A stretch of 63,999 nucleotides of DNA, counting the filler, from Bipalium vagum (taxonomy: Eukaryota), in the NCBI GenBank assembly GCA_037834085.1. It is 3 parts of 3 records of this genome, joined end to end, with 100 filler letters (N's around TTAATTAATTAA, not from the genome) between each part and the next. Parts side by side here need not be neighbours in the genome. Positions count along the whole stretch, not along the records: positions 1 to 28,444 come from JBBMKC010048249.1; 2 more parts are not named here. The stretch is one strand, 5' to 3'. Positions 1,140 to 45,011 of the stretch are shown here, piece by piece; positions within the stretch are counted from its first letter, which is position 1; every line of letters begins with the position of its first letter. The notes below the pieces were generated by a model, which made no database searches, was not told the DNA's origin, and worked only from the letters and a program-made list of their open reading frames with translations. The position numbers were made by a program, and so were the translations under genes.

Positions 1140-1192
<53 letters not shown>

Positions 1193-1193
1193 T
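1140..1193. repeat. (ATT)n microsatellite
   Basis: Directly visible; produces the spurious poly-Ile ORF. Confidence 0.95.
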
Positions 1194-2669: not shown

Positions 2670-2689
2670 TACTAATATATTACATTATA

Positions 2690-3894: not shown

Positions 3895-4070
3895 TGCATT
3901 AAATTTTATTCAAAAAATGAAATCAGTGCAACCAAAAGTTTTCAATAATGCAGACAGCATTTGGTGAATAATGCTTATAGAGAAAAAATATATTCAAGTG
4001 ATATAAATTATTCGGAAAAGGTTGTGAGTCCATAGAAGATAAGGATCGTTCTGGTCTTCCATCAACATTG
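3895..4070 (+). mobile_element. Mariner N-terminal HTH remnant
   Basis: Frameshifted KNEISATK...QTAFGE...GCESIEDKDRSGLPST. Confidence 0.55.
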
Positions 4071-4635
4071 ATATCAAAAAGAAATTTGCAAACAATTATT
4101 TTTCACAAATCAATATATTTTTGTAATTGAAACTAACTTACATGAAAATTTTTTAAGAACGAGAACTAATTTCTAAGTAAATATTTTTGGTGAAATTCAA
4201 TATTAATCGTGCGTACATTATTTATTTATTTCATCACTATTATATGTAAATGTTTTTAGTATAATACTTAATATAATACTTTAACATGTTCAGAACATGT
4301 TTCAGTGAACTTTAATATTTCTGTTCTGATTTTTCAAAATTATGTAATATTCAAAGTTAATTATTATTTTCCTCATTGTTGATTCAAATTCATTTATTGA
4401 CATTTGAAGAATTTTATCCATAATCCTTTTTTTAAGAAGTTTTATTATTTATTTAAAAAAAGTTTTCAACACAATTTTTAAATTTATTATTTATTATTAT
4501 TTTATTAAATATATATTGTGTACATATATTATTAAAATTGAAAAAAATTAAAAATAAAAACTGTAAAAGAAATTTATATAAAAAAATTAAAATTAATCTT
4601 CTTAAAAAATATTGAGTTTTTCATGAAATTATTGA

Positions 4636-4800
4636 ATTATTATTAATTAATTTTATTAATTATTAATTAATTTTATTAATTATTAATTAATTTTATTAAT
4701 TATTAATTAATTTTATTAATTAATTTTATTAATTATTAATTACTTTTATTAATTATTAATTAATTTTATTAATTATTTATTATTGATTAATTATTATTAA
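4636..4800. repeat. AT-only minisatellite, about 20-nt unit TATTAATTAATTTTATTAAT
   Basis: Tandem copies directly visible. Confidence 0.85.
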
Positions 4801-7199
4801 TTTTGATTAAGATTTAATCATCTATTCTTATGTTCCTTTTTCTATATCCCCTTAGTTAATCTAAGCTGTGTTCTTTTAATGACCGCTGACTCATAAATTT
4901 CTGTTTCTTCGACATTAGCAAAATTACTCATTAATACAGAAAATCATTTTAATTAAAATATATCATTTTTGTTTTCATTTTACAACTCGTAATATGATTT
5001 TATACTTTTTTTCTGTTTTATTTAATGTTTAATAATTTGATTTTGAAATGACCTTGTATTTCCTCTATGAATAGTTGACCACACCAACGAAATGTATTAA
5101 AAATATTAGCTTAATTTACATTTATAGTTCCAGCCTTGATTTTTAGAAAAACTTTACTCTTTTTAGTTACCGAGATAACCTTCAAGCTTTCTTCATTTCT
5201 GCTTCAAAAAATCTTTTTTCTGAAACTTTTAATTTATTTTGAATAAAGAATTTTAATTTTTAATATTCAATAGTTCTCTTATCTTTTCCGGGATTTTATA
5301 TTATTAAAAAATTCTGTATTCATAAACATTTCTGCTTCCATATTTTCATTTCCCATTCTTGATAAGTCTAATTTTTATATCTTTTTTTTAGTTTGTTCCA
5401 GGTTTTACCACCCTATTTAGAGTCAGAAGTAATAAAACTTTTTATTAGACCTTTTCCATACCTGGATTCAAAAATAATCACATTTGATATTAATGTGGAA
5501 ATTATCGATCAGAAATGGATCCATTTCATTTTTTTTTAAAATTAAAAATACATCATCAAAATATTATTTATATGCAAATGATCTACTTATCTAGAAAATA
5601 TTTGAAGAGTGACAATGACCTGGACAGAGTAGATTCGAGATCCTCGTCAATATAGTGTTATAACAATGAGCATTGCTTACTTTCAAAATTGTTATTTAAA
5701 AAGTGTTTATTTAGAATATTTTAAAATTTATGTTCCCAAAAAATATGCATTGTTATAACAAGGAATCCCGATATTATAACAACCAAAACATGAAGTTGAA
5801 AAATTTGAAGTATATTTTGATTGAATATTTTTGGTGAGGTTATTGTCATAATCAAATGGATTTCTAAATCTCAAATGTTATTTTTCAATTCAAAAGAGAA
5901 GTTTACATAAATAATATAATTATATGTATAAACATTAATATTTTTCTCCTACACATATTTTATCAGTTAACAGCAAAATCTGTTTAAGCATGCAATTATT
6001 AAAAAAGATTGGGTTCTATGGTTTTCATATATTGTAAATTTCCTTTGGTTACCATATATAATATTTTCCTGTGATCAAATAAAGTTCTTTCAATGTTTAA
6101 AGAGTCTCAACAACACAGATTGAATAATCTCAAATTAAAATCTCTGACTGACTCTTTTTGAGAAACAAAAGTTAAATCAGTCTTTTTATAGAATTCTTTG
6201 CTATTGATAAACTTATCCACTGTTACCAATATAATCTTTTACATTTTCCATTATTAATAAGTATTCTTCACCATCCTCTTATTTCATAATAGAATCCGAA
6301 TTAGTGCTTTTTCTTCAATCATTCTAACTGTAAAAATAAATGAATGGAATTTTATAAATTTAACTTCTAAATTGTAATTAAATTGTCCTTTCAAGAGCTT
6401 TTAAATGACACTAAATTTTCATAGAAATATTATTATCAACTGATAAGGTAAAAAAGAATTTTAAATAACTAAAAACAAGAATAACTTTTGACTCAACCTG
6501 ATATATCGATAATAAACTCTAAATAAGTTGATAATTTTACTCAATTTTTCAAAGTTTACTCAATATTTTTATACACCTTTTAATAAAGACAATAATCATA
6601 ATATTAATTGTAAATATCTCAAATTATAATAATAATATCACCGGTTTATAATATGACGTTATTCACATATTCCAGTATTTCTATTGATTTTATAAATAAA
6701 CAAAATAAGAAACAACAAAGACCAATGATAAATGAATAAATAAATAATTTCGCACGGATATTAAAACAACCATGAATTATAAATGTAATCATGAGATCAG
6801 AATTTCTTCGCGAGATTATTAAAGGAATTATAGTTTTGAATAATATAAAGAGAAATTATAATTATAATCTTCATTCTAATTTTTATATCATTAATTATTA
6901 CATCTTACTTCGTTTGTTCGTTCACAATTTTTACTTTTGTAACTCATCTGCTATTATCGTCTCAGTGTACATGATTATTTCATATGGTCTTTCTTTTAAT
7001 TAATATTTAATTAATATTTATACCATCCGTTTTTCATTAGAAATGAAGAGATACATTTTGGATAATAAATAATAATAAAAATAATAAATAAAATTTTCTA
7101 ATTTATTTACAGATAATATTGAAAAATTCTTTTTATTAATTAAAATGAGATTCATTTGATTGTAAACATTTTTCTTCAAAGAAAAACAAAAATAATCTA

Positions 7200-7480
7200 T
7201 TCGCATTGAATGAAAAAAAGTTATTTCTGAAGGCTGCTTGTTTTCTTTTAAAAGTTTCAACATTTTTATTATTTTTGAAGTTTTTAAACAACGAAAAATG
7301 ATATTCGGCAGGTCAATTCTTTGGGATTTAAGAGATTGGTATATTGATATAATATCCAAATTCCTTTAGTTGTCTGAAACAACTTTTATAGAGTTGTGGT
7401 CTTGTGCTGTCATGAAGAAGGATTCACAAATGCAATAATAAATCATCGAGGTATCTCGTCCTTTTTGTCTATTTCCTGAA
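7200..7480 (-). mobile_element. Mariner catalytic-domain remnant
   Basis: Minus strand LLHDSTRPQ (HDNARPH-like) and DLPNIIFRCL (YSPDL..SDY.LFRSL-like), heavily decayed. Confidence 0.5.
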
Positions 7481-10400
7481 CATACTGCTTCACTGTAAAC
7501 GTTTTTCTATTGTTTTAGGAAATTAATAAATTAAGAAGACAAATTTATGATCAACGGATCTTTACGATTATTTTTTTTGTTTAATTTCTGATTTTGAAAA
7601 TGTGGAATTTTGTCATGACCTAATCACTGACCTTATGACTTTCTTTAAAGCGTTCATTAAGTTTCATTATTTATCATTTCGAGCAAAGTATAAATCAAAA
7701 TTAATTTCTCAGTATCATAATTTATGCTATTTATAATATAACTATTAGCGTTATTATAGGAAAACTGAAGTTTGATAAATCAGGATGTTCATTATAACGT
7801 ACTTTCTTTTGAAATATCAATTGATAATATGTAGATATTGGTAATCTTTTTATGGATTAATAGTATATTAATTGATTCAGATAATTTTAAAATATTATGG
7901 TTATTTTTTTCCTGTGTAAGAAAATATTTAAATTATTTTGGGGAAGCAAAATTCGAAAAATTTCAGGCAGCTTTTGAGCAATGGAAACAAGTTTCTCATT
8001 TCTCAAAGTAGACTGTGCAATAAAAATAAAATCCGGTGGATAGCTTTCAATTTTAATACAGTAAAATAATTGATTGAGTTCAATGAAAACGAGTTTCATA
8101 GGCAAATGATGCTTAGTGAGACAATGTACAATTCAAAAATTATTTTTAATGGGTTAACAAGATGAAAGCAAGTTCGTCCTAAATTATATGATTAGTCACC
8201 CTTTTTTCTTGTTATTAAATAAACTGTTATCATAAACAAGATTTGCTGTTTGTAACTCCAAGATTGAAGTATCAGTGTGATACAGTTTAACTTCAGAAGG
8301 TTTCACTGAGTGATATTTCTTCAAAGACGGATATTTTTGAATTAAACAATATTTCATGTGACCTAAAGTAGTAAGGAGTCTTAAACACTTAAAACCGCAT
8401 GAGACATCAACATAAAATTGTCTTATGTTAATAAACTGGGTAGACAGAAAATTCCCTAATTAATAGATTAGATGTTCTAACTTCCGATCTAATTCCAATA
8501 GACTTCTTATGGAGGTATCTAAAGCACATTATGTACAGATTTGTATCTTCCACTGTCACAGAGCTTAAGGACCGAATTAATCATGTTTGTACCGAGGTAG
8601 ACATTTGAGTGCTCCAGCATACATCTGTTTTTGTCATCAAAGGGTTTACCTATATGTTTATCATAAAGTGTATTAAGGTTCGATAAATATTTAGTCAAGA
8701 TTTCTAGGTATATTGCCCAATATTTTAATTATAATTATGCGAACAGTGATAGTGTCTTCATGATAACAAGTTTTCCAAGGACAACTTTTATTGATTTATC
8801 AAGTAGAGACACGCTCACATTTTAATTTCTCAAACCACCTGTAAACTGTTTTAAAATAGTCTCATCAAGAAAGCCCAATTTTAAAACATCAAAATATTGC
8901 TGACGTCTCAATTCACATGGAAAATCATAGAGTAGTATGAAAATTTTTTAATTTATAATTTTTTTTCATATGCTAAAATTACCTAAAATATTTTTTCTTT
9001 ACGTTTTGTCATGTCTATTTTCTAAAATTGTTCAATATGGCCTCTGTTATGTGCAAAATAATTATTATGTTATCCAGTTTAATATTTTATATAAATTCAG
9101 AATTATTTATATTTATTTCAATATTATTTATAAATTCAATCTTCATTAATTAATTTTTCAAGCAAATAATATTATATATAATATTTATATTCATTTATTT
9201 ATATTCATTTATTTATATTCATCTCTATATGAAAAATTAGTGAAATAATAATTTTACTAAATATTTGTCAAATATTGACAATAAATAACGAAAAAATTCA
9301 GAGAACATTAATCCTTCTGTCTTATTTTGAAAAAGGCATTTCGTCCAACAATATAAGTATAGTCGATAAATTAACAGAAATAATTTTGGTTCGCTTACAT
9401 TTTCCATTGATAATAAAATCATTTTCTAATTTCATTCAGGTCACAATATTCTCCTGTCAGCTAAATTGCTGTGGTACCTAGTTAATATTCTATAATGTAA
9501 CGAAACCTATTCATAATTAAACCTAATGAAATGGAAATACAATTTTCATTAATTTTATTTCTAATAATATGTAATTATTTTTTTTCATAAAAATTCTTTT
9601 TAATTGAAATTTTTCTTCATGAATTTTTGTTCTTCAATCATTATATGTACGTAAAATAAAAATTTTAAATAAATAAATAAAAATTATATAAATAAAATAA
9701 TATAAAAAATAAAAAATAATGTTAAAAATATGATTATTAGAATAATAATAATTTTAATTGTGATAGGAATAAAAACTATATAAAATTTAATAATAATATT
9801 TTCTTAATAAAAAAATCAAATAAATTATAATGGTAATACAATAATAATATAAAAAATTAATATGATTAAATAAAATAAATAATAATAATAATAATAATAA
9901 TAACCAAAAAATTAGAAATGTATTAAGAAATTAATTTTTTTATCTTAAAATAAAGATAAGAATTTGTTTAAATATTTTTTATTAATAAATGAGAACGTTC
10001 AATTTTCAAATAAAATTAACGAAGAAATGGAACTTTAATGTTAGCAGACATGAAGTCTTTACAATTAAATCTTTCGAGTTTGTAAAATAAGTCTTGTACT
10101 GTGAATACAAATTTGTAACCATTGAAGTAGTTCTCATTAGAGTTTTTCTTCATACCAGTCTCATATCTGGTTTTATGACCAATTTTAGATGTCTTAGTTG
10201 ATTAAAACAAATAGTGGTCCGATATCATTTCGTGGAATGCATAATGGTATTTCTATTATCAGTATAGTCACTTGAAACATTTGTTATTATTTACGACATT
10301 TATTCTGATCAGAAATATGAAGGGTTTCAATTTGTTTTAATATTGATTATTGGCTGGACTTTGGATAAAATTAAAACAAAATAAAATTATATCAGGAAAA

Positions 10401-13096: not shown

Positions 13097-13237
13097 ACTT
13101 TATATATATACATACATTTATAATAGCTTTCATTAAACATTCTTCGACAATTAACAATCATAAAAATGTGATTACTTAAGTTATGTTTTTGAGAATAAAA
13201 TAATAATATTTATGATTAAAATAAAACTTTATTCCAG

Positions 13238-13840
13238 CAAGTCGGTATGTTGCAATCGTCAATGTCCCCAGGAAAAGATAATCTATTTCGTGGTTACATG
13301 ATCCCTTCTCAATACTCCGATTCTCTACACAAAACTCTATCCTGTAATATACAAAAATCTCCGTCTACTTCTAGTCCCCCGTTTTCGCCACCATCATATC
13401 ACCAGGTGTTGACCAACCAAGGTGTCCGTATTATTCAAAATCCTAATCGATTTAATGATCAATATATTTACGAATGGTCATCAATATCAGATGATAGGGA
13501 GAAATCGATGCACAGAAACCTTAACAACCTTGAAAATATAAGGTCTATGTCTCCTACCAAAAGCATGTCCATTCACAATAGTTCAAAAATGCTTAATGAT
13601 GATCAACATGATTCTGGATATCAAATTTTGAACCCGTTTGGGATAATTTCGTATCCACAACCAAATTTCATAAATTATTCGCCCGAAAGTCTGATACCAT
13701 GTGAAAACGAGATATTACCCGGTGATTCAAGATCATTGACCATGTTGAACAACTTTTTTGATGAAAATAACAATGGATCTCACAGCAAGACCACCCCAAG
13801 AACAATGAAAAAGAACTATTTTCAGACAACCTTTGTTTAG
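13238..13840 (+). CDS. Terminal exon of gene A: Ser/Pro/Asn-rich cytoplasmic tail ending QTTFV* (class I PDZ-binding motif); protocadherin-like receptor possible
   Basis: attccag|CAA GTC GGT ATG is phase 0 and in frame with the 13247-13840 ORF. AATAAA motifs follow about 100-120 nt after the stop. The family assignment is inference only. Confidence 0.8.
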   Translation, partial: QVGMLQSSMSPGKDNLFRGYMIPSQYSDSLHKTLSCNIQKSPSTSSPPFSPPSYHQVLTNQGVRIIQNPNRFNDQYIYEWSSISDDREKSMHRNLNNLENIRSMSPTKSMSIHNSSKMLNDDQHDSGYQILNPFGIISYPQPNFINYSPESLIPCENEILPGDSRSLTMLNNFFDENNNGSHSKTTPRTMKKNYFQTTFV

Positions 13841-16646: not shown

Positions 16647-19600
16647 ATTTAGTCATTAAAAATAATTACTTTTCTAAAATATAACCAATAAAACTTAACA
16701 GTGAGAAAAAGGTTATGCACCAAGAATAAAGTTCCAGATTCATTATGACAACTCTGAGAATCAACATCAACGGGAGATGTTAATAAGAAATGTATTTTTT
16801 TTTAATAATTACCGTTATGAACCTCTATACCGTTATGAACCTCTATCAATTGTCTCCGTTTAATATATACGTTTAATTAATAGAAGCTTAAGATGAACCT
16901 GTTTGAAGATTTTCAAACAAATTGGCTTATAAGAATTGGCTTTCAAAATCATCTGGAAGCATGGAACAACCTTGTCAATGGATTTTAAGACAACGTTTGA
17001 GTTTAATTGTTGAGTGTCTCAAGTTCAAAGTTCGTCAAGGTTTCCTGCAGATAAGATTTTGTCAAATATTTACCTCGAAGTCAAGTGAAATATAATTGCG
17101 GAGGATGTTTATAGTCAGTGTTAATGTTAACAGTCAAATAAATGAAAGGATCATAATAATAATAAAACTTGAAATTATTTCAATTAACCAATATTAATGT
17201 AAAGAACATGAAATTTTGATAATTTTTCAATAATAACAATAATTGAAATATTAAATTGACGATATAAAATAAGTTATGTTATATCAAAGTAATATTATAT
17301 TAATTATTATTTTATAATTATTATAATATAATATAAATTATTATTTAATAATTTTTTTTTGAGAGGGGATTGTTATTCAGAAAATCTTAAAATTCATTAT
17401 CTTCTGAAATTTTTGCCTGAACCTGTCTTTTTTTATCATTCAAATCGAAGTTGGCTGATTTAAATCTGGTAAATCAGAATTCGCAGATTAAAAACGGCTT
17501 AGCCTCATTAACATGTTTCCTCATTAATTTGAAGCGATTCCACCACTGATTTTTGCATATTGAATAAAAACATTGAAACAGTTCTGAAATATAATCTTGA
17601 CATTTTCATTTATTATATCTTTTAAGTGTTTATTTAAACAAATAGAATTTCTAAACTTATAGATTTACATTAGATATTTAGATATTTAAAATAAGTTGTT
17701 ATTTTAACTTCATTACAGATATAACTAAGACTTATGCTTATTTTAATTTTAGACCAGAATTAATGCATATTAAATAATAATAATTTTAATAATTTGCATA
17801 AATAATTCTTGTGAAAAAGATATTAAAAATACTTTGTCATTGATTGCACTATTTTTTTGAGTTTCAGTTTCAACTTCCAAAAGTGTTTTTTTTATAAAAT
17901 TATTTCCCTTTAAATAATATAATATAATAAATATTAATTAAATATTTTTTTAATATTATATCAATATATTAATTAATTTATTATTGATTATAATATTAAA
18001 TTTAATGTTTCTATTGAGTTTTATAATTTGATTTCCGAAAATTAATCTAATTTCATATTTAACTATTCTAATAATATTTGATAAAATAATAATAATAATA
18101 ATAATAACAAAAAATGTTTAATGATAAATAAAATCAAAATTTTACATTTAATTTTTCTGTAAGCCTAATAATTAAAAATGGTCTCTTAATAAAGAAAATA
18201 TCTGATTATTTCAAGAATTATTTTTTCTTTTTTATTTACATAAAGATTATAATTTTAGATGAAACACAATTTATCTGCCTAGAACTGAGCTATTCTAAAA
18301 CGAGACTTGTGTTAAGGAGAGAGATAATCTTCACAGGAAATTTGTTATAAAAATATATAAATCAATATTGGTGGGATTTGTTTTCCTGTAATCGAATAAA
18401 AAATCTTTTAATTGACTCAATATTATCTGTTAAAACAAATCTCAATAATTCGATAATTACTCTCAATTTAATTCGTTATATAAAGTAAATCAACAAAATT
18501 AGAATACGGAACAGGTTGATAGAAATAAGTTAATTTATTTTTCTTCAAAAAATTGTTTATTTTATTTTAAAATATGAGAAAGTCGGAAAATAATATTTTC
18601 TATAAATTTTTCTTATTATTAATTTTATTTCAAAGATTTTTTTTAAAAATATTTTTTTATGATGTGAAAAAAAACAAAAGTAACCTTCTATTTATCGTTA
18701 CCGTCACAATCAAAATACCTCGACTGAACGTTATTTTTGACGACCAGTCTTCCCAGACCATTAGGGACATCGGAATAGAAATCACAAGTTTTTTTCATTT
18801 TATTCAATATTTAAAATATGATTTAGAATTTGCCGAAAATAGAAAATAATGTCACTGTTCAAATAATGAACAGTCTCATTAAACCTAGATAAGACTACTT
18901 TATTTGTATTTAAAGATTAACAGAAAAGAGTTTTACATAAAAAATTAAATATTGAGAGGTAAGGCACTCAAAGTTTTTGAAGTAATAAAGGCTTTTAAAA
19001 TATAATTGAAAATAAAATGTCATAAAATTGGTTCACATTACCATACGGTTCCTAACTGTGTTTGTTAATTTTCTGTTGTTGTTTCGATTATAAAAAAGCT
19101 CTGTTTTTTGGGTTCTTCTTAAAAAGTGGACAAATAATACATATTAATGTATAACAATGACAAAAACTGAAATAATAAAAATAAAGTATATTCTTTATAT
19201 ATAATATCAAGTTGAACAGAAAGCTCATTCTGATTATTAATATTATATTATAGCTCAAAAAATGTCCTGTTGCATTGCAATAAACTTGTATAGTATTATT
19301 GCGATGAGTCATGTCTTATAATTAATAAGAAATATCAATTGTTTATCTGAATTTTCTTTGTCTACATAGCGCTAAAATGAATAGTGACAATAAACATCTA
19401 CCACATTGCGCCTTATACGAATTTCAGAAAAAGAACAGTGCGACTGAGTCAATCAGAAGTTTGCAGAATGTATTTGGAAAGGATACTGTAAAAGAAAAAA
19501 CCGTTCCGTTCTGGTTTCAAAAATTCAAAAATGAAAATTTCAGTTTGAAAGATAAGCCAAGTTCAGGTTGAACTTCTGCTTTTAATGATTCCATTTCATT

Positions 19601-19743
19601 TAAAGCAGACTCATTTGAGACTACCAAAGAATTGGCGAAGGAAATCCGTATTTCACAAAAAGCAGTAGGATTTGTAAGATTTGCTCAAAAATGGTTTTAA
19701 TGGATATCCCACGAACTCACAAAAATATTAGATCGTATTTCTA

Positions 19744-21140
19744 CAGGCTGTCTCATAAGTTCCCGCGGAAAGTAAAATTAAATATTTCTTAAGCAGATTG
19801 AGATATTTAATAGCTTGCTTTATAAAATTGAAGACAAATCTTTTAATTTTTATTTCATATAAAAATATTTACAACAATTGTTCGAAATGACTACCATTAA
19901 CTGATATACATAAATTCGTTCTTTTTACAATATTTAAAAATAAGGTATTCAGAGCTTCTCTGGTAAAACTTTTTATTTTTTCGGTAATTTTTGTTTACAA
20001 ATCGTCAATATTTTTAATTTTAGATTTGTATATCTTATTCTTTAAAAGGCCCCATAAATAGAAGTCAAGAGGATTTAAATCTGGCGCCCATCGAATTGAA
20101 TCACTTCTTCCAATCCACTTGTTTGGAAAATGAGCGTCAAGATAACGTCGTACATTTGTTGAAAAATGCGCAGGAGCTCCATCTTGCTGAAATACCAGAG
20201 ACCGTACTTTGTACATGTAAGGAGTTTAGTTGACAAATGAATGGGGGACGTAGCTCAGCGGTAGAGCAGTTCATGCGCATGCCAATTTATTTGAACCTAA
20301 CAGTACATTTTCCTCACTTCAAACATAAAACAATATTGAAGCATTGATAGATAATTTTGGCCATTAACAGTCTCATCTTCAAAGAAATACGAACCGATAA
20401 TTTTATTTTTTGACAAAGCACCTCAAACATTAACCTTCTGGGATTTTCTAGAAATTTCAAAAGTAACATGTGGATTAATTTCTGACCAATATCTGACGTT
20501 ATGTTTATTTACTAATCCTATTAGGTAAAACGTTGCTTCATCTAAAAAGAAAATTTTTTCCTGAATATTCACATTTTCTAACATTGAGGCCATGGTTTTA
20601 AACATCTCAACTCTGTCTTGAAAATTCTCTTCATGTAAATCCTGTGTGAAATGGGCCTTAAATGGTTTCAATGATAACTGTTCTCTCATAATTCGATGGG
20701 TTGTTGTTCGCAAAATGGAGCAGGTGATTGTAACAGATCGAACATTGCATTGTTGGTCACTTTCAATAACTTCACTTATTTCCTGAACTTCGTTTTCAGT
20801 GATCAGCCTTGGTCTTCCAGAACGTTCACTATCTTTCATCGAGCCAATCTCACAAAAACGATGAAAAGTCTCTTTTATAGCACTTTCACTTGGTCAAGCT
20901 TTCCCAAATTCGGCATTTAATTTCCGTTTATCAACACAAATTAAGTTGAATTTGACCATTACAAGTACAATTTTGATTCTTAACTTAAAATCAAGCGGCC
21001 TTTGCTAAATTTAATTTTTAAATATTAGAACAAGACTTAGACTTACATACTTTAATATTATATAAATAGTAATTTCAATCGATTGAATTTAATGAAGGAT
21101 ATTTAAGTTTACTTTTCACGTGGACTTATGGAACACCTTG
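19744..21140 (-). mobile_element. Tc1-superfamily element, rosa/DD41D-like, nested in the mariner
   Basis: About 48-bp TIRs flanked by TA. Transposase motifs RSGRP, FFLDEATF, FQQDGAPAH and WAP-DLNPLDFYLWG. D2-D3 spacing is 38, or 41 if the missing RSP is restored. Confidence 0.85.
20216..20302 (+). mobile_element. 87-bp solo LTR carrying a tRNA-Ala-like 5' half
   Basis: Termini TGTAAGG...CCTAACA; perfect 5-bp TSD GTACA (20211-15 and 20303-07). Excision restores the host transposase frame (MFEVRKMYKVRSLVFQQDG). Contains GGGGGACGTAGCTCAGCGGTAGAGC. Confidence 0.85.
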
Positions 21141-21460
21141 TATATATACTTTTTCTTACTTCCGCGAAATAAGAAAGATCCATTTTTGATCGATTGATAA
21201 CAGATGAAAAATGGATTCATTACAGTAATGTATGTCTTACCAAGCTAACCAGCTCCTAACACTTCAAGATCAAAATCCATGATAAAAAGAGTATGGTATC
21301 TATTTGGTGGAATCGCAAAGAACCTGTAAATTTTGAATTGTTGCCTTCTGTCGAAACAATTACATCTAATCTGTACTGTGTACAATTAACACTGTATTTT
21401 GGAATAAATAAAGAGCTCTTTAAAAAAAAACCTTTTTTGCTTAAAATAGGCAAGAACTTT

Positions 21461-22130
21461 GGACAATTTTTTGACCTATTACAACATTGTAGGTCAAATT
21501 ATACACATTGGGTGATGAGCAGGTCATTTTTTAGACATTGCATAAATTAAACTTATATTAAGATCATTTTATACAATAATTATTGTATTGTACATATTAA
21601 AGATTGAAGAAACGATGTTAAACCACAAGGCTAAAGCTCATCGACCAAGGTCTCCATCCAAGCAATTCTGGGCCTTATTAATTGCAAATTGCAGCTACAA
21701 GCCTGAGATTTGAACCAAAAATAATATCTTTCCAATCATATACGAAATAGTTAGACAAGGCAGTCACTGATGAGGCAAGAGTATGTCGTGACCTAAACAA
21801 TACATATATGCAAAAATCGGTTTGTCATAAATATCACTTTGTTGATTATGACCGCAATGTCCACATCAGAACATCGAACGCTGCAACAAGATCAAAGAAA
21901 GGCTGAAAGCTATGCATGGAGCATATAATCACCTTAGAGTTGATTTTCTTCAATACCATAATAGCTTTGAAGAAACTGTGAATTTGTTAATAAAAATATA
22001 ATTTTTGGTTGTCAATTTTATCTTTCTTGTTATTATTGACATTGGGTTTTCATTGTAGGTCAAAAAAACAGCATAGATAATTTTGTAGGTTAAAAAAAAT
22101 ATTGTTACTTTTAGGTAAAAAAAATTGTCC
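21461..22130 (+). mobile_element. Merlin (IS1016/ISXO2-like) DNA transposon, decayed
   Basis: TIRs GGACAATTTTTTGACCTA / TAGGTAAAAAAAATTGTCC; perfect 8-bp TSD AGAACTTT. Transposase remnants IEETMLNHKAKAHR, IFPIIYEIVRQG, VTDEAR, HFVDYDRNVH-QNIER. Confidence 0.85.
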
Positions 22131-26443: not shown

Positions 26444-27702
26444 CAAGGTGTGCCAGAAAAATCCGGACAAAAAAAAATTTAAACAAACAAAGATATATTA
26501 AATAATATCATAATTATTTAAGCAATAGCCATATTTTTTGATTAAAAATATGTTCCATACTTCTATTGCTCGATATAACCACCTCCTGATTCTATGACCT
26601 TGAAGGTTCTCTGCCTGAAGCGAATGCATGCCTTCTTTACATGGATTTGGTTCAATTAAACAAACGCTTTTGTAATGGAATTCTGTAGAGATGTCAGATT
26701 AGGGTGTCTCGACTTGTTAGTAACCCTTTTAAGAAAGCTCCATACATAGGGTTTAAATCTGTACTATTTCGGGGCCAGAATTCCTTGCTCCAATGGAACA
26801 TTATCGACAACCAGTTTTGAACTAAATAACTTGTATGAGCGAACGCTCAATCTTGTTGAAAGATGAACAGTCGTTCAGAAGCAACGATTTGCATCCTGGA
26901 CTTCACTACTGTACTCAGAATCTGTACGTAGACTTCCTTTGTGATAGTTTCACCCTTTTTCAAGAAATTTGGGGTCATGACATTACCTTGACTAAAGAAG
27001 ACGCCTATTACTAGAACATTGGCTGGAAACTTTGTCCTTGGTACGATTGGGACATTTTCAATATTGTGGGCAAGCCAACGATCATTCCGCCGATTATTTT
27101 TAGCATCAACTGTAAAAATTTTTTCATCAGAGAAAAACTTAAGACGACTCGCTGCTTCATTCTTCAGTGATTTGAGTAACAAGTTACACCCAACAACACT
27201 TTTAGTTTTCGTAGCCTCAGACAGCATTTGTCGTATTTTTAGAACGTGAGAAGCATATCTTAGATCTTCTTCAGCTACCCAAAGTTGTTGCCAATTTTCG
27301 AAGCGATGTCCCAAGATCTTCCATTATTAGCTGCTGAACTCTTTGAACAACTTCCGTGGTCCTTATTTTCCTTTATTTATCATGTATTATTCTTTTAGGT
27401 GTACTAGAGGTTCATTCAGCCATCTCCGATCTCCGATATCTTCGTGCGACACCGTACAATGTCGATCATGGGTACCAAAGAAATTAATTATTTCAGCAGC
27501 GTTTTTCCAGCGCTAAGCTTTCGAGAATCGCGACTCTTCGATAAATTTCCAAGCCATTTTTTGTAAAATTAACATTTTGAAAATTGTGCTCAATTTACCG
27601 AAAAATATAACATGTTTAAACAAATATTAACTCGTATAATTAAAATCAAGCATAAATATAAATTTCAAGTAAATTTTGTCCGGATTTTGCTGGCACATCT
27701 CT
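26444..27702 (-). mobile_element. Full-length decayed Tc1/mariner, maT/DD37D-like
   Basis: TA-flanked TIRs CAAGGTGTGCCAGAAAAATCCGGACAAAA. Motifs FFSDEKIFTVD...NRRNDRW, FIFQQD*A, FWPRNSTDLNP. Confidence 0.85.
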
Positions 27703-28444: not shown

Positions 28445-28544
28445 NNNNNNNNNNNNNNNNNNNNNNNNNNNNNNNNNNNNNNNNNNNNTTAATTAATTAA
28501 NNNNNNNNNNNNNNNNNNNNNNNNNNNNNNNNNNNNNNNNNNNN
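28445..28544. other. Assembly gap with synthetic linker (N44-TTAATTAATTAA-N44)
   Basis: Exactly 100 nt; an identical construct lies at 45012-45111. Confidence 0.95.
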
Positions 28545-28714: not shown

Positions 28715-29482
28715 AAGGTGGGAGTCTCCACAGATCAGACCAGCAATGGACCAACAGTCACCATAATTTCTTATAGTGCAAATTTGGCTTTGGGAAATGT
28801 TTCTGAGCTTTATTTTTATCCAACCATTGTGCCGAACGACGCCGATTGTCCCAGAGAATCCATTTCTCATCACACGTCACGATTCGATTGAGAAATGGGT
28901 GGCGGTTTTTGCGCAAAAGCAGAGAAAATTCCACTTCGCAACGACGATTTTTTTGTTTTTCGCTCAGGTCAAGTGGCACTCACTTATCTATCTTTTTCAC
29001 CTTTCCAATCTCGTCTAAGTGACGAATGTGGTATGATCAACCGCAAGTTCCGCTCCGATTTCTCTTGTGGATTTTGATGAATCAGCTTCAATTATTTTCT
29101 TTAATTTATGATTGTCAACTTTACATGAACGACTGCGACCATCCTCATCTTCAAAGGTATCATCTCCCTGATGAAACTGTTTAAACCAACGTTGCACCAT
29201 ACGCTGATTCACAGTTGCAGGACCAAATGCATTATTCATTTTGCGAGCCGTTTCAGTAGCATTTGTGCCTAATTTGTATTCGTACAAAAAATGGTGCGAT
29301 ATTGATATTTTTCCATATTCGGTTAAATCACCTAAAAAAAGATAATTAAGAAATATTTTAAATAATTTATAATAAAATTTACTTTGTAAAAATTTTACGT
29401 TCAAAGATTTATCAAAATATTTATTAAAATGAATAAAATTAATGAATTGCCAAAAAAGGACATTATTTTTGCACCAACCTAA
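28715..29482 (-). mobile_element. 3'-truncated mariner
   Basis: TIR TTAGGTTGGTGCAAAAATAATG. Motifs FLYEYKLGTNATETARKMNNAFG...QRWFKQF and FLNRIVTCDEKWILWDN. Confidence 0.85.
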
Positions 29483-29557
29483 TAATTAGACATATTTAAG
29501 CCTGGTTTGATGAACCATTTAGTCGCAAATTAAGTCAAAAATAGTTTTTTAACAGGA

Positions 29558-30373
29558 TTGTCATTATTTATGTCTTGTAAGAGATATTTTTTACACTCGT
29601 TTTTTATAATATTTTCAAATGAGATAATGAAAATAAAAAATCAGTGCCTTGCTTCTGGTAAAAATGCTTTCACAATCTCCGAAGTTTATTTCAATATTTC
29701 ATTTTATCAATATAAATTATCAATAAATAATATAAATCAGATATTAATGAAGAATATGGAGAAAATGGAAAATTCAAAAAATTTACGAGAAAAGGAATTA
29801 CAAAACTTAAAGTGCAAAAGGCATAATAATTATTGTCTTTTAGAATGGAACAGAGACAGTGAAATATGTTTCGAAAAAAATAATGAATGTTTTAAAGATT
29901 CTTTTATATCAAAAAAGAAAGATCGTTTAAGATACACAGATAATTCCTCTTTAGACATCAAACAGCTAAGTGATAAATATCGATCAGGTCTTGATATAAA
30001 TTTAACGATAGATACTCAAGACTATGACATTTTCTGCAAGTATGAAATACAAAAGCTAAAAAATCGCTTAGTCGACACTTTGGGAACTGATACTCTTATG
30101 ATGCACGATTCTCAATTTTTGAGATATGCATCAACAATATTTCAGGCCAAAGAAGATTCAAAAATCAAGTCAAATGAAAAAAAACTTAAAAATATTGAAA
30201 AACTAAGAGTTGATCCTATTTCTCGGATGGATATCATAAAATCAAGGTCAAAGAAAGCCAAAACAAAATTCGATGCTAATAAAAAGAAAAAATTATCACA
30301 AAGAAAAGGAGATGTTTGTGATAAGAAAACAATCGACAGAATTAATGAAGTTATTAAAGCACCTCTTAATTAA
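29558..30373 (+). CDS. Orphan Lys-rich ORF (likely start ATG near 29747 or acceptor at 29741); unknown function
   Basis: 271 open codons in very AT-rich DNA; no transposon motif recognised. Confidence 0.5.
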   Translation: MSLFMSCKRYFLHSFFIIFSNEIMKIKNQCLASGKNAFTISEVYFNISFYQYKLSINNINQILMKNMEKMENSKNLREKELQNLKCKRHNNYCLLEWNRDSEICFEKNNECFKDSFISKKKDRLRYTDNSSLDIKQLSDKYRSGLDINLTIDTQDYDIFCKYEIQKLKNRLVDTLGTDTLMMHDSQFLRYASTIFQAKEDSKIKSNEKKLKNIEKLRVDPISRMDIIKSRSKKAKTKFDANKKKKLSQRKGDVCDKKTIDRINEVIKAPLN

Positions 30374-36300: not shown

Positions 36301-38484
36301 AAAGAGTTTGGATTGCGGAATTCAACAAGATTATTGATGTCAAAAAATTGGTATTCTTTAATTAATATAATTTTAATTGAAATTAATTTAAGTATTTATT
36401 TTAAATATACAACTTTCACAAGTACAACTTTAACATTTTCAATTCTTTTTTTTTTCAAAATTATAAGATTTACATAATATTCGTTTTACATTACAGCAGT
36501 TTTAATTTAATTTAAAACTAATTTTGGAACTATCTTACAATTGATTGCCACAATATAATTGACAAACATTTTATTTTAATATTCATCTCGTTTAATGATG
36601 ATATTTTTTCTGATGTTCATTTCTATTTTAACCTTCATTACTTCTCTAACTACATTTCAAATTATATAATGGAATGTAATGATTACCCCTTAAGATTATG
36701 TAATAATAACGAGAGTCACCCTAAGTTCACAACCTCCAATCAAATGATCAAATGATTTAAATTGAATAATAAAAAAACCGAATTAATCAATTATTGAATA
36801 TTATTATTTATCGTTATTATTGAATTTAATTTATCCACATTACTTTTAATTTATATCTCATTCTACTCTTCATATTCAACCTATGCTTATTTTTATACAT
36901 AATTATTTTGATGATTTAAATTATTTAATTATCTAAAAATTTAATTATCTAAATATTATGCAAATTAAATAAAACTCGGTTAATAGATAATACACTTTAT
37001 GGAGGAACAAAATTATATTAATCAAATAAAATATGTGGATTTAACCTTTATCTTAAAAACATTAATTAATTAAAAATACGGTTGAAATTCGATTAAAATT
37101 TTGCATTTAAAAGTTCTTTTGCTTATGAGAATCTGTAAAAAAGGCGCTCCTTGGAATCACACTAGTAAAAAAATGTCAAGACCATTAACATAACTTCTGA
37201 TAATCGGACCGATTCTACAGTGTTTGGTATCCTGGGCAGGTTGATGTTCCTGTTGTCCAAAACAGTCAACAGTCATCGGAACTTGTAGTCAATATGTTGA
37301 CTGGACAGATAAATGCAGCTGGTAACATCTCTTAGTCTTCAGAACATCGTCAGAAAGTGCGGCAGTTAAATAATAATAAATCCATTCGAATAATTCACTA
37401 AGTATGAAGTTTTATTTCTCAATGTAATTTCTGTTCAGAGCTCAAACTAAAGTTATTACTCGACAAGAAATATTGATTTTAGTTAAAATAATAACAAAAT
37501 TTAAATTAAAAATTTCGAAACTCCTTCAATTTTATATAATACACTTTTTGTATCATAAAGCAGTTAAATATAATTAATTTATTAAAATATGTATATTCAT
37601 ATTTTATCTTCTTGAAACTTAGATAAGTATAATCGATCTACTCTTTTAATTAAATAAATAAAATTAACCATCGGTTTATAATAATTAAATTCTTTTAGAA
37701 ATATATAATACATTTGAGACTTCAGGATATTAAATTTCTAATTAATTTGAATACTATTTATAAATAAGGAAACGTAAAATTAAGGAAATGTAATTAAAAA
37801 GTTAGATAATTATGATTTTTATTGGATTTTAAAAAATAATTTTTAATATAATTTTGCTTAATTATTTTATTATAAAAGTATGAATATTAGCATAAGCATA
37901 ATTAAAAACGAAAAATATCCAATTGAAATGATAAAAATAAAAAGTCCTATATTATATTGCTTTTTACTATAAAAATTAATTAAATTTGGTAAAAGATGAA
38001 CCATTTTTTATGGTTTATATTTGAATTATTGTTGGGTTTCTTTTTTCTAAGCCGAAATCTTATATGTAATTCCTGTGCACAATACATAAAATAATTTATC
38101 TGTTTATCAATTTGTTTTCTTATACTGAGAAAATGTGAGCCTAATTCCTATGAGAAGAAATGACGAAATATTAATTGAAGATATGTATAAATATTCTGTA
38201 AAATCTCAATCTTTGTGAATTAGGTGGACTTAAATGCTTCTATGCAAACAAAGAAAGGAATATCAGAAGTTTGATCTCCAAGTAATACATATTGTTCCAT
38301 GGTTTTCTAATCCGAAACATATCTGTGTGTTCTGCTTAGTCAAGAGATAATGTAAATGAATCGACAAGAATTTTCATGGTTTTTCTCTATTTTGGCGCAG
38401 TATTTATCCTCTGTAATTGTGTAACCCCCTTTAAATATGCCGTAATGGATTTTGTGAGATATATTGATTAATTTTCAACTAACA

Positions 38485-38494
38485 TGGCGACCAC
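38485..38494 (+). promoter_or_regulatory. Primer-binding site TGGCGACCAC (tRNA-Arg-type 3' end)
   Basis: Immediately follows the LTR-terminal CA; complementary to a ...GTGGTCG-CCA tRNA 3' end. Confidence 0.65.
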
Positions 38495-38618
38495 ACCATG
38501 ACACCAACCAGCAGGCGAAGTCTCAAAAGTAAAAAAGTAAATGAATGAAATGGAAATTGAAGTAAAGAGACTCGGAGCGGTTAAGGGTATGGATGTGAGA
38601 TAAATTGAAAATTAGTCG

Positions 38619-38670
38619 GGGGATGTAACTCAGCGGTCAGAGCAGTCTATGCGCATGTTATGGGTTGCAC
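38619..38670 (+). pseudogene. tRNA-Ala-derived 5' portion (A box, CGC anticodon position)
   Basis: GGGGATG TA ACTC AGCGGTCA GAGC A GTCTA TGCGCAT GTTAT GGGTT GCAC. Confidence 0.75.
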
Positions 38671-40499
38671 AATAGTGACAATTTTGAAAGTGTTGGAAGT
38701 GCGAATAATTGTTCACATTGTTGTTTGTGTGGTTCTCGATGTGGTAAACGCTCCACTGAGTGAAAAAAGGCTACCACTTTCCATTGTTCGAGGAAGTGTT
38801 GTGTAGATCAACATTTGGAAAAATTTTAAAATTCATTTCCTTTAAAAGATTATTTTAAATATTCAGTTTTGCAAGGAAATTTCCCACATGGGTTACATCA
38901 GGTTTTGGAAGAGAAGAGAGAACAGATCATGTGTAGAAATTGTAAATATGATCAAAGTGAAGAGGCCGCGACCTACCGCGAAGATGGCAATAATATGCCT
39001 ACGGATATTTTAAAAGTATTGCAGTGCCAGATATATGATTCTGAGCAAAATTTGAATTCATTGTATGCTCAATACATCAAGAATTTGTCAGATTTTTGTA
39101 ATAATGCTCATTTAAAAACTGAATTTAAAAACAATTTTCAATTAAATGTCACAAATAAAAATGATACTAAAGTTAAGGCCGATTTAATAATAATAATAAA
39201 ACGAGCTAATGATAATGTTGATTCTGAAAGGATTTTTAAAGTAAATGAAATTTCGTATAATAATAATAATAATTATATTATCAAAAGTAATAATGATATT
39301 TTTAATAATTCAATGCTAACACGTGTTTTGTCCAAACGTGAAGAGGTTATTTTTCAATAATTACCCACTGTTACAAAGTATGAACAAAAGACGCGATAGT
39401 TTTCAAAAATGTAAATTATTAAATATTGAAATTAAAAAAATAAGTAAAATAAATGACATTTTGAACATAAAAGATCTAAATAATATTTCCTATAAAAATG
39501 GCAACTTCAGATGCAATGTAAGATTAGATAAAAATCCTTCAGCATCAACAGAAATCAAAAGTAATTCCGAAAAAATCATAACGTCACATCTGATTAATCA
39601 GATAAATCGCCTATTCAATCCTGTACACGATAATTGTAACAGCATTAAGGAGCAGATTAAAATAGTTTAATTATAGGTCAAAAATTGATAAAAAAGCATT
39701 TCGCTTCCTGCTTGGTAGATTGGAGCAAAAGCGTAAATCACTATTATTAAATAAAAATAAATTCCTGATTTTTAAAAATTCTCGCCTGCAATGTCTTGCA
39801 GAGCTTGAGAAATCTATTTTTGATTTTGTTGACTTCATAATCATTCAATTTTCTGCTTTTGTAAATTTTAAGCCATCTTATTTGATACCTTATTTGAATA
39901 AGATGTCTAATGTTCCTGAAGTTGATTGTAAGATTACATCTGAAAATCCTTCAAAATCTTCTCCATGTGAAATATTTTCACCTAATATCTGTGAGACTTC
40001 TCCCATGGACATGTATTGTCCAATCTGCACTGAGAGACGAACTATTTTAATCTTGAGAACAGATTTTGCTCACTTTTTAATCTGTCAGCCTTGCCTTTAT
40101 AGCTTGAATAAAAAATTTAGAAACTTTAGCAAAAGTCAAATTTTAATCAATTGAAACAAAATAGTAATTGGTCTGGTATTGCTTCTGAAAATAAAGTAGA
40201 TACTGCTAATAAAGATAATGATTGTTTAATCTTATATCTGTTGAAGAAACTATTGTTAAGATTCATATAAAAATCCTGAAACTTGATTTTTTCTACATTG
40301 ATTTTTTCTGACATTGTTAAGAGTTCTCTTGAAAATGTAATTCCGATTGCAAAACAAACCAGAGGACAATTAATTGTACCTGATTCGAATTGACAACTTG
40401 TGTCTACAACTGTCCGCACTGTCTTCAATTCCATTGATTTGACAGGTTTAGATAGCACTGATAGTGAGGAGATTGCTGAAAATAGCTACCGGCCTTTCC

Positions 40500-40900
40500 A
40501 GTATAACTCTCTATTTACTAATCTTGATATTCACAGTTTTTTGTGTAAATTTGTTTCGAATAAAACAATTTTTTGTTTAAACCCTCTCGTTGTTTTCGGT
40601 CTTGCAAATAGCAATCAATCTTATCCAAGACTTTGATCAGGCTCTTTTTCTGCTGATAGATTGTTTTGTCCTTTAAAAATTCTAAATAAACACAGGATTG
40701 CTTTCGTTTACTGCAAGACTCATCTAATTTCATTTTATTTCGATCCACTTCCATCTGCGTTTATTCCTGATTATGTAAAAAAACAGATCCAGGTTTTAAA
40801 CACTGCTCTAAATATTGCTTTTGGGATTGATATAAAGTAAATAAACAAGACAATGGCTACGATTGTGGTTCATTTATTGTTGCATTTTTTCAATTGATCA
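40500..40900 (+). pseudogene. Ulp1/SENP-like cysteine protease domain 1 within the LINE
   Basis: CPLKILNKH(R)IAF (His at 40691), YFDPL (Asp at 40742), QDNGYDCGSFI (Cys at 40864). Confidence 0.8.
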
Positions 40901-41149
40901 GCAAAAATTTTGAAGCTGATACTTTGGTTATCTCTCGTAAATTTATTAGTGAAATCAGGAAAAAGCTTTCAAAATTCAGATTTCTCTCAATGTGGTGTCC
41001 CACCTTTCTGATCGTGGTAATATAGATAACGTAAATTATAATGATAATAAAAGGTTAAAAAAATTCCAACTTGCACAAAACCGCTTTCGTTTTCAAATTC
41101 TTTGAACGATCTTTCTTCTCTTTTGTTTTTTAAAGATGATCATTTGATT

Positions 41150-41545
41150 GCCTATTGCTCTCACTATATCAAATGTAAAGAAATTCTTCTTCTTAATCTA
41201 TTGATTAGTAAGGCATTGGTGAATGAAGATTTGACTTTAATTAGCAATTACATCATGTTTAAAATGTTCAAAGTTTGGAAATGGATTTTTGTCCGTTCTT
41301 TCACAATGAAAAGTACTGGGTACTCTTTGCCTGTAATTTTCATGATAAAAGTATTTTTTGTATTGATCTTAATCAAGATTTGTCAAAAACTGATCTCTTT
41401 CCATCAGTTAAATTAATTGCCAAATTTATGACAATGTTTTCCATTAATCAAAGTTTGTTTTCGGCTGTTTCAGAAAGTCCGGCAGATCAGAAAATTAAAT
41501 ATAAGAAAGAGAGAGGTCCTCTTATCTGTGGATGTGATGTTTAGC
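41150..41545 (+). pseudogene. Second, degenerate Ulp1-like domain within the LINE
   Basis: FCPFFHNEKYWVLF...IFCID...ERGPLICG parallels P....HW.L...D...DCG.FI; the His and Cys positions are substituted. Confidence 0.55.
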
Positions 41546-44500
41546 TAATTCTTAGTCTTTATTCAATATTAATTGTTACAAAATTCGAAAAAACGCTAAC
41601 CGTTTCTTAAAATTATTTTCTAAATCAAAGACATTAAAACCGATTCGTAGCTTTGTGTCACCGCAAAGTACTTTTGTTTCTCGTATATCAATGGCTGCAA
41701 GTCTTGTTTCTACTTGTTTGGAACAAAATTTGTCTAACGATGATTTTGATTCAAAAATTGTCAAATATATATACGAATTGAGACAGATTAAAGAAAAGAA
41801 CTTATTTCTTGGTAAATCTTCAGGTCAAAGATTTCAGGTCAACCTAAGAAAAGTTACCGATTCTCTCCATCAACTGCTTTTAAGATCATTGTTGATAAAA
41901 CTGTAGCTGATTGCACTCCATCATCCGATGATGTAATTAAATATTACAGTCAAAAATCTATTGTTCCTACTGCTTGTGACTGGTTTAAATTTTTTGACAA
42001 TAATCTTTTTAAACATGGTCCTCAGTTTGATTTTCATCTAATCGATTCTGATGTTTAGAAATCAGTTTTAAAATCATGTAAAAATTCTGCTCCTGGTATA
42101 AGTATATCATACATTCTGATATCAAATATTTTGATCCGTTGTTAAATATTTATGGTGCTCTTTTTAATAGAATTATTGAGAATGTCTCTATTCCATCCAG
42201 ATGGAAATCATTCTCAACATTGCTTATTCTAAAGTCTGTGAAAACCGGACAATATCACGATATAAATTCTTGGCGTCCAATAGCTTCATTTGATTGTTCT
42301 TATAAATTATTTGCTTCGGATTTGACTAAAAAGCTTTCTGGTCGGCTTAATAATAATAATCTTTTACATTCTATCCAAAAGAGTTTGGGTCTTTTCAATG
42401 GGTGCTCTAAGCATAATTTTCTGCTTTGTGATTTAATTGACCGATATCACAGAGAACTGCAAATGCCCTTGCATGTTGTTTTTCTTGATGTTGCTGATGC
42501 TTTTGGCAGAATTCATATCTTTATCATAACCGGTTGTCTTCTGAAAATTGGAGTTGGCTCTCAATCGTGCAGATTGATATCTAGCCCTGTAAAGTAATTG
42601 TCAATCATACTTTATGTGCGGCAATCTTACTACAGATCCTATTAAAATTAATGTGAGTGTTCGACAGGGATGCCCGTTATCTACGTTGTTGTTTAATGTT
42701 TGAATGAACCAAATATTAAACAGTCTCGATCAAGTGTTAAACGGTGGCGTTCTGATTCGTGAACACCAGTTGAGCGCGCTTTCTTATGCAGATGATGTCG
42801 TTCTTTTGGCCACAAGTCGTCCACACACACAAGCTCCCGGATCGCGCAGTTAAAGTGTTATCTTGGCTTCATTTGAGATTTCGGCCTTCAAAGTGTGCTT
42901 TTGTACGTGTTCCACAAGTTCAAAATGCATATCCTTTGAAATTTGCTGATTCGTCAATTTCAACATTGCTGTTAATGAGGCATATCGATATTTGGGTGTT
43001 GACTTTTGTGAAAATCTTCATTCACCACCTTAATCGTTATTTGCTGACATTATGGAACAGCTATAAATTATTTCCGAAAGCATTCTTTACCCATGGCAAA
43101 AGTTGAATGCCTATCACACTTTTAATCATTCGCGAATGATTTTTGCTTTTCGGAATAATTACACAACGTTCAATGAGATGACACAAGGAGTCAATGCCAT
43201 TGAACCAAATATTCGACGTCTCCTGAAAAGTATACTTGGTCTTAGAAGTCATTCTTCCATTAAGTACATGTATACTCCAAAATGTTTTGGTGGTGCTGGC
43301 ATTATATCTGTAGTTGACGAATATCTGGTTCAGTCAATTGCAAATATATTTCAGCTCTTTAACTCACCAGATAAAATTACTAGAGATACGACAATCTCTT
43401 CTTTAATTGGTGCTGTCTCAAATCCTGGTCTTTTTAACCGAGTTACACTCGATCAAGCTTTCGAATGGCTTAATCGTGGCGACATTCAATGTCTTCAGAA
43501 TTGTTGGTGGAGGAAGGCTCAATCTGCAATCAACCAGATGGAGTCCAGACACAAGATCAATTTCAAATTCGAGCTAATAAAAGTGAAGCTAATTTATTCA
43601 AAAGTTGTTTCGAAAAAGTTTCACAATTTAATCAATCATGCTTGGAACAGTCAAGCAAGTGTGGGTCGCTTTGCATCAGCAATTGGCCAATCAAAATTAT
43701 CCACTTCTCCAATTTTCAACGGTGAAATATCAATCGCAGCTTGGTATTTCATTAATCGAGCTAGGTCATATTCAATTTAGATCAATGCTCGTCATGGCTC
43801 AAAATTCCGTGGATTGCCGAAAATGCATTGAGCAAGAAGAGACATTGTCTCATGTTCTTGTTAATTGCATTCCGTCAAAATTTTTTCTAAACTGCCGCCA
43901 TAATTCTATCCAAGACTATCTGCCCAAACAAATTAAAGACAATTCAAAGGCCAAAGTCTTTGTAAACGCTGAAAGTCAATACGTCTATTCCACAAAACGT
44001 GTTACCTTCAGATTGATTTCACGGACCGCAAAGTCCTGTATCTTATTGACATTAAATGTCCGTATGGTACAGTGAAAAACATCTATTGGAACCATGAGAA
44101 GAATCTCATTCACTACCAAGATCTTCTGTGTCAGACCAAAAAAGCCCTGACAGATTGGCCCGTTCTGCTAGATACGTTTGCAGTCGGTTGCCTTGGATCA
44201 TGGCAAAAGCGAAATGAGAAAATTCTGAGAATTCTCCAATTTCCTAAATTTCATATAACCAAAAAAGGATATTCTGCGTGGCGTCTAATATCAAATGGAG
44301 TGCCGCGCAATCGAAATTTCACAGAGATGTTGAAAAACAATCAGTAAATTTCTCTGAGCTCCACGCAATTGAAGATGAAAACCTCACTGACAACCAAAAT
44401 CAATTCCTGTCCGATGCTGCTTCTGAAAATCACGACGACTGCGATGATGACCTGCTCCAAAATGAAGATGAAGCAAAGCCATAATATGCGCACATTTATG

Positions 44501-44556
44501 TGAAAACGATTAGGTTCGTGAAAGAAAAAACTTTTTTTTAAAATAAAATTTTGTAC

Positions 44557-44577
44557 GATCGAATCCCGATATCTCCG
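44557..44577 (+). pseudogene. tRNA-Ala-derived 3' portion (B box/T loop and acceptor strand)
   Basis: G ATCGAAT CCCGA TATCTCC G. TATCTCC pairs with GGGGATG, including a G3:U70 wobble. Confidence 0.7.
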
Positions 44578-45011
44578 ATTAATTTTCAATTAACAATATC
44601 TATTTCAGCCAAAAACACTCCCATAGGACGCTGATGATATGTAACAAACCTGTTGCCAAACAAACACAGGCATACTAATACATACACTTGCGGGATATGC
44701 ATTCTTTTCAGACTGAAAAGTCAATGAGAAATAGAATGGATCTTGATCACCATTATAATGTTATGAATCGGCGTATATCGAACGAGATGCGCCTTATCAC
44801 CCAGTGCAGTTCATTGTTCGAAAAAAGAGATATTTGTAATTTTCAATTTTTGAAAAACAGGAATTCAGTTTTGAATGATATTTAAGAATGCATTATGGTT
44901 GACAAATTTTCCGTAATTTTAAAATAAAATTATTGTTCTTAAAGTTGTTTTAATATTTCTACAATAAATATTATTATCAAGAATAAATAATATAATGAAT
45001 TGGGGTAATAT

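Follow-up and report, generated by a model that had tools for sequence, protein, structure and literature searches.

In the 63,999-nucleotide stretch of Bipalium vagum DNA analyzed here (the window), an 87-bp insertion within a dead DD41D transposon is probably a solo LTR, damaged by an internal deletion of ~31 bp, of a ~350-bp non-coding Helenus-type TRIM. Helenus designates tRNA-containing TRIMs, TRIMp3 (Kojima 2024, PMC10886601). The ~118-bp LTRs of the element found here carry a tRNA-Ala copy that is predicted to serve as Pol III promoter. The 87-mer with its TSD, compared with empty paralogous sites, is a past insertion, which in its present state is probably dead. These observations uphold the proposal of the first-pass annotation that the tRNA-LTR is mobile, as empty paralogous sites, a common 5' terminus and a relative that has two LTRs and a primer site all point in this direction. 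On the other side, a 5-bp TSD, a degenerate purine run and a tRNA 3' part matching a prokaryotic tRNA-Ala profile at E = 10 speak against a Helenus-type TRIM. The features discussed below are compiled in Table 1.

Table 1. Features of the 87-bp insertion, its host transposon and the related two-LTR element (positions in the window)
Feature	Position	Strand	Basis
Host: decayed DD41D-type Tc1/mariner, TA-flanked inverted repeats, interrupted at 20216-20307	19744..21141 (ends approximate)	-	tblastn, 72-74% identity to P0001; inverted repeats aligned
TSD, left copy, GTACA	20211..20215	+	single at empty site of other host copies
LTR 5' leader (U3-like), TGTAAGG start, family 5' terminus	20216..20243	+	X1 depth step, divergent flanks
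tRNA-Ala(CGC)-derived 5' half, A box intact	20244..20281	+	33/39 aligned positions match tRNA-Ala(CGC) of L072; nhmmer E 3.4e-5
CC and tail ending CTAACA (U5-like), after internal deletion of ~31 bp	20282..20302	+	15/21 identity to 44575-44595
TSD, right copy, GTACA	20303..20307	+	
Relative: 5' LTR reduced to 32 bp, a fusion of its two ends without the tRNA	38453..38484	+	5' 15-mer recurs only at 38594, 3' 19-mer only at 44577
Relative: interior, 109 bp, non-coding; primer site TGGCGACCAC first, purine-leaning run last	38485..38593	+	
Relative: 3' LTR, 5' part; leader and tRNA-Ala positions ~1-48	38594..38666	+	nhmmer E 3.7e-4
Decayed NeSL/LIN-like non-LTR retroposon, ~5.9 kb	38667..44553 (5' junction approximate)	+	Ulp1 protease, RT, 3' end
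Relative: 3' LTR, 3' part; T arm (GATCGAATCCC), acceptor strand TATCTCC, tail ending TTAACA	44554..44595	+	acceptor pairing; tail 18/19 to 5' LTR end

Insertion site and boundaries of the 87-mer

DD41D Tc1/mariner elements, also known as rosa or VS, are represented by the host transposon and by its intact relative P0001 (349 aa), in which the catalytic residues D154-D243-D285 show a spacing of 41 between the last two aspartates. Like these elements, the window copy has TA-flanked inverted repeats; it differs from them by its decay: besides the 92-bp insertion, it contains stops and has lost 9 bp close to the third D. The host pieces flanking the insert are collinear with P0001, which runs uninterrupted across the site, and an HTH_32 match in the host lies below cut-off. 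With P0001 as query, zero confirmed loci were obtained in metagenome contigs.

The window, which derives from an AT-rich animal genome, also contains other decayed mariner/Tc1 remnants, located at 19329-19700, 26750-27330, 28760-29485, 51115-51972 and 54513-54761 (mostly Pfam HTH_48 or Transposase_1) and, recognized by eye only, at 21260-21550. Pfam matches were for the most part to transposon domains. Probable host-gene exons lie at 280-558, 13220-13840, 29534-30373 and 57497-57676 (all +), their basis being two long frames for which no relative was found, a weak EB-module match and a transmembrane-like stretch. The two gaps (28445-28544 and 45012-45111) each consist of 44 N, 12 bases and 44 N (the 12 bases at 45056-45067 being TTAATTAATTAA) and are likely assembly linkers.

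Paralogous copies of the host were studied using the contigs of one public run, X1, which contains 0.84 of the words sampled from 15.5-25 kb. The window may itself stem from X1, so that the two are not independent, although the paralogous contigs of X1 remain informative. Among the 2740 X1 contigs placed on 19900-21150, at least 12 skip exactly 92 bp (8, 3 and 1 in three adjacent registers), and at least 16 further ones continue from 20216 into host sequence on the downstream side. As these X1 host copies lack exactly the 92 bp, the empty paralogous site, for which the first-pass annotation had proposed this very comparison, is confirmed, and the 87-mer is not a constant part of the host transposon, an outcome which would have spoken against its mobility. 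Over the same region, numerous deletions of 56-409 bp, in part accompanied by short filler letters, are found inside the paralogous host copies in X1, and repeats in this genome seem to be eroded by deletion.

The insert starts with TGTAAGG and ends with CCTAACA, with inverted complementarity at 6 of the 7 terminal positions. The TG...CA ends and the perfect GTACA duplication that had been claimed are both present at 20211-20307, and the 87-mer thereby shows the LTR-type termini and the 4-6-bp TSD that characterize Helenus/TRIMp3. When 5000 random 40-nt cores of the window were evaluated, a TG..CA unit with a 5-bp repeat was encountered by chance in 1.94% of the cases, and in 0.06% once an inverted repeat of at least 6/7 was included. 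The boundaries had previously been regarded as fixed by restoration of the host reading frame. Removal of the 92 bp does join the host frames on either side of the insert; however, further stops persist, and the direct repeat can also be read as 6 bp (GTACAT) when the first T of the element is included, so that the reading frame alone is insufficient to define the register. Instead, the register is fixed by the family 5' end and by the tail common to the LTR ends at 38484 and 44595.

This family 5' end was obtained from 125 X1 contigs placed on 20194-20324. Their summed depth jumps from 144 to 7894 at the bin containing 20216, and at least 10 contigs diverge ahead of this position with a mutual agreement of 0.53; at least four and two diverge at 20215 and at 20213, respectively. 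Together, the depth step and the divergence identify 20216 as a family 5' terminus set in unlike flanks. The summed depths (up to 84,576 inside, ~20 outside) do not equal copy numbers, and a coverage hole at 20284-20303 in these contigs was given no weight as evidence. The eight longest X1 pieces differ from the window 87-mer by 1-5 letters in 54-66, which suggests that the insertion is probably not recent.

Two alternative origins bear on these termini. Ginger-type elements have TG...CA ends, create 4-5-bp duplications and depend on an integrase-like transposase, and a non-autonomous DNA transposon (MITE) that used such a transposase and captured a tRNA fragment would be compatible with the TG...CA ends, the imperfect 7-bp inverted repeat and the 5-bp TSD. 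We consider this origin highly improbable, as the inverted repeat does not extend beyond 7 bp and the relative described below carries homologous ends as direct repeats around a primer site. Even less credible is a tRNA-derived SINE, or a tRNA pseudogene, inserted via target-primed reverse transcription and bearing TG...CA ends by chance: such an origin would account for the tRNA 5' half with its A box, and LINE-type elements do occur in the window, but in many copies a fixed 28-bp leader of non-tRNA sequence separates the tRNA from the 5' end at 20216, a poly(A) or repeat tail is lacking, and such ends are rare (0.06% per random core).

The tRNA-Ala part and the loss of its B box

From 5' to 3', the 87-mer comprises the leader, the tRNA 5' half, the ~31-bp deletion, CC and the tail; the intact LTR would be ~118 bp. 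Box A (TRGCY ... YGG) is present as TAGCTCAGCGG at 20251-20261, while the missing ~31 bp correspond to the T arm with the B box and most of the acceptor 3' strand. In agreement with the annotated common core, 40 nt of the 87-mer are 87.5% identical to 38618-38657 (E 0.001). The loss of the B-box half, with a direct jump to CCA, is likewise borne out; in the 38.6-kb copy, this half sits 5.9 kb away, at 44554-44576. No B box was found within 2 mismatches in the 260 bases after the A box of either the 20.2-kb or the 38.6-kb copy. The leader (20216-20243) is weakly homologous to the one at 38594-38618, 20 of 2000 shuffles being equally good (p about 0.01), and the 15/21 identity of the tail is reached by 7 of 6881 CA-ending 21-mers, both LTR tails among them.

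Using nhmmer and a profile built from 34 tRNA-Ala sequences of prokaryotes and phages, we obtained matches at 20244-20284 (E 3.4e-5), 38619-38666 (E 3.7e-4) and 44557-44576 (E 10). Assignment to Ala, returned for 123 of 127 loci, is to some extent circular, since two of the anticodon bases were preset in the search pattern. The isotype is not specified by the first 24 tRNA bases, as none of the 30 viral loci retrieved by them was Ala (11 Asn, 3 Val, one each of Ile, Lys and Pyl, 3 unclear and 10 without a call). The core pattern of the tRNA-LTR matched 0 stretches in metagenome contigs.

A functional tRNA-Ala gene was considered and rejected. There is no complete cloverleaf with a B box, ARAGORN predicted 0 tRNA genes, Rfam reported no tRNA at either site (E<=10 at 20.2 kb), and folding was no better than that of shuffled sequences in either copy (z -0.33).

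At least four X1 contigs depart from the 87-mer at 20281 into tRNA 3'-half-like (variable-loop-like) sequence, with an agreement of only 0.65. As they continue past this point, the loss of the B box reads as damage and, judging from these contig sequences, looks like an event in a single copy rather than a subfamily trait. Two X1 contigs carry the leader of the 38.6-kb relative, which indicates that two leader types exist, and both the 20.2-kb and the 38.6-kb type recur in X1. In one X1 contig, the tRNA core is followed by 27 letters matching, by eye, the end of the relative's interior (~38562-38581). The second subfamily postulated in the first-pass annotation thus finds partial support, through its leader; absence of the B box as a trait of that subfamily is not supported, given the contigs extending past 20281 and the tRNA loss in the relative.

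Alternatively, the B-box-less 87-bp LTR could constitute a subfamily of its own, copied as such, with transcripts arising either through read-through or at the A box aided by sequence upstream of it. Clean termini with a TSD, the two leader types and a 5-bp TSD as opposed to the possible 4-bp one of the relative would agree with this, yet we judge it improbable in view of the four contigs departing at 20281, of the post-insertion deletion evident in the relative's 5' LTR and of the B box being required by tRNA-type Pol III promoters. The same low degree of belief applies to the TGTAAGG type being an 87-bp-LTR lineage that shed half of its Pol III promoter and moves without a B box, via an integrase producing 5-bp TSDs, in contrast to that of every animal Helenus listed. 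At 87 bp, its LTR would be shorter than any animal or plant LTR in the part of the Helenus Table S1 covered here (PMC10886601).

A two-LTR relative split by a nested retroposon

With the nested retroposon set aside, the element at 38453-44595 consists of two LTRs around a short non-coding interior. For both the 15-mer and the 19-mer that define its 5' LTR remnant, 0.03 matches are expected. The CTAACA end of this remnant directly abuts the primer site TGGCGACCAC, which is complementary over 8 nt to Schmidtea tRNA-Arg ends plus CCA and over 10 nt to phage tRNA-Arg ends. Among 84 viral loci, 36 hold a tRNA whose end is near GTGGTCG, and 24 of the 28 with GTGGTCG+CCA ends are Arg; GGTCG is the end of Schmidtea tRNA-Arg-TCG and -CCG in the portion of PMC4640811 covered (S6 Fig). 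The purine run ahead of the 3' LTR is degenerate (11 of 16 purines, 38578-38593), and the outer flanks, ATTT and ATAT, would form a 4-bp TSD at only 3 of 4 positions.

Within the split 3' LTR, the acceptor strand at 44554-44595 pairs 7/7 with 38619-38625, G3:U70 included, the latter being the Ala identity pair. The sequence GATCGAATCCC at 44557-44567 occupies the place of the B box instead of GGTTC; it was seen in the relative, not directly in the TGTAAGG type. When the relative inserted, its two LTRs must have been alike; as the 3' LTR kept the tRNA that is now wholly missing from the 5' LTR, post-insertion deletion does occur in this family. The relative carries the other leader type, so that a two-LTR copy with the TGTAAGG leader was not encountered. 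Two earlier delimitations were rejected: an LTR end at 38680 (87 bp, ATTT repeat), the true end being at 44577-44595, and a 12-bp inverted repeat at 38416/38673 as element ends, which comes without a TSD.

The relative also bears on whether the 87-mer stems, as a solo LTR, from an autonomous LTR retrotransposon that codes for proteins and has the tRNA piece in its LTR, the short two-LTR element being a deletion product. Such an origin appears very improbable: in the only relative with two LTRs, the interior is non-coding and 109 bp long, one X1 contig joins the core to that interior, and the sizes are those of Helenus. In its favor, a two-LTR copy of the TGTAAGG type was not seen, and tRNA-like parts are present in many Repbase LTRs (Kojima 2024, PMC10886601).

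The nested retroposon lies within the tRNA-Ala copy of the 3' LTR, close to where the T arm begins. It contains a Pfam Ulp1 protease (40831-41022), an RT fragment below cut-off (42082-42594) and a zinc finger. Its 3' end, AAAATAAAATTTTG, is as in four Schmidtea LIN26_SM copies and thereby points to a planarian; 10 of 100 shuffles match somewhere in the window. In the part of PMC4640811 covered, LIN26_SM is a 28S-targeting family with many off-target copies, and tRNA-targeting families occur among planarian LINs. The tRNA-LTRs might act as decoy targets for LIN-type retroposons, a suggestion drawn from a single site at which the closest 3' end is that of the 28S-targeting LIN26_SM. Its untranslated 3' end (44474-44502) bears a loose likeness to the tRNA core (TATGCGCA), which is probably due to chance.

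Relation to known TRIMs and a proposed cycle

Like Helenus, the element described here combines a tRNA-derived sequence in short TG...CA LTRs with a PBS, a short non-coding interior and solo LTRs with TSDs, and by definition it is to be grouped with Helenus/TRIMp3. Within the sections of the Helenus paper covered (PMC10886601), its sizes fit those of the bivalve and brachiopod families (LTR 104-193 bp, interior 58-268 bp; Table S1), priming by tRNA-Arg is known in wasp families, and a GATCGAATCCC-type B box occurs three times in the supplement. In contrast to Helenus, the 87-mer is devoid of a B box. Moreover, every animal family for which a TSD is given in the covered part of Table S1 has 4 bp, whereas the 87-mer has 5 bp, and for this reason we do not place it in the animal Helenus lineages, which are Gypsy-dependent (PMC10886601). 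Flatworms are absent from the covered main text and supplement of that paper; in the same supplement, a search with the core retrieved nothing beyond generic A-box matches in the published consensuses, and TGGCGACC was not found.

Other TRIMs share individual features. Ajax and Cassandra also carry a Pol III gene fragment in their LTRs, theirs being 5S rRNA and the one here tRNA-Ala (PMC10886601). Ajax is in addition an animal TRIM with 5-bp TSDs, as seen for the 87-mer, though primed by tRNA-Leu (PMC10886601). The ta-TRIM of taeniid cestodes is a flatworm TRIM with many solo LTRs (Koziol 2015, PMC4558846). In the part of that paper covered, its primer is tRNA-Leu, a tRNA-derived LTR core is not reported and the term 'polymerase III' has 0 occurrences; its TSDs are mostly 4 bp, with 5 bp in 5 of 57, so that a single 5-bp TSD need not mean a new lineage (PMC4558846). 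Open literature, covered at listing level, yielded nothing relevant on a planarian tRNA-LTR element and, for the primer-site motif, two unrelated entries; PMC12859917, in the part covered, only cites Helenus.

The earlier description of an integrase-made insertion later reduced to a solo LTR stands insofar as a solo LTR is the simplest reading, the action of an integrase and LTR-LTR recombination being inferred steps. A cycle can be proposed in which Pol III would start at the tRNA of the 5' LTR and transcribe through to the 3' LTR, although Pol III transcription from the tRNA part is unvalidated for Helenus itself (PMC10886601). The RNA would then be packaged by a putative autonomous LTR retrotransposon, which from the example of Helenus (PMC10886601) is likely a Gypsy element, and its reverse transcription primed by tRNA-Arg at TGGCGACC. 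Integration at GTACA would proceed via a 5-bp staggered cut, LTR-LTR recombination would leave a single LTR, and a later deletion would remove the B box, resulting in a dead copy. That full-length LTRs have family-wide 5-bp TSDs, and hence another helper, is possible but rather unlikely.

Taken together, the window supplies the parts that define a TRIM, namely an insertion whose paralogous sites are empty and a copy in which two LTRs and a primer site are preserved. As this kind of TRIM was already described in 2024, what is new is likely the host group and not the mechanism. High-copy tRNA look-alikes of this kind can inflate tRNA gene counts and, if the 5-bp TSD were family-wide, this would point to a helper integrase different from that in other animals. 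Overall, tRNA-promoter TRIMs are likely extended here to a phylum absent from the 2024 survey.
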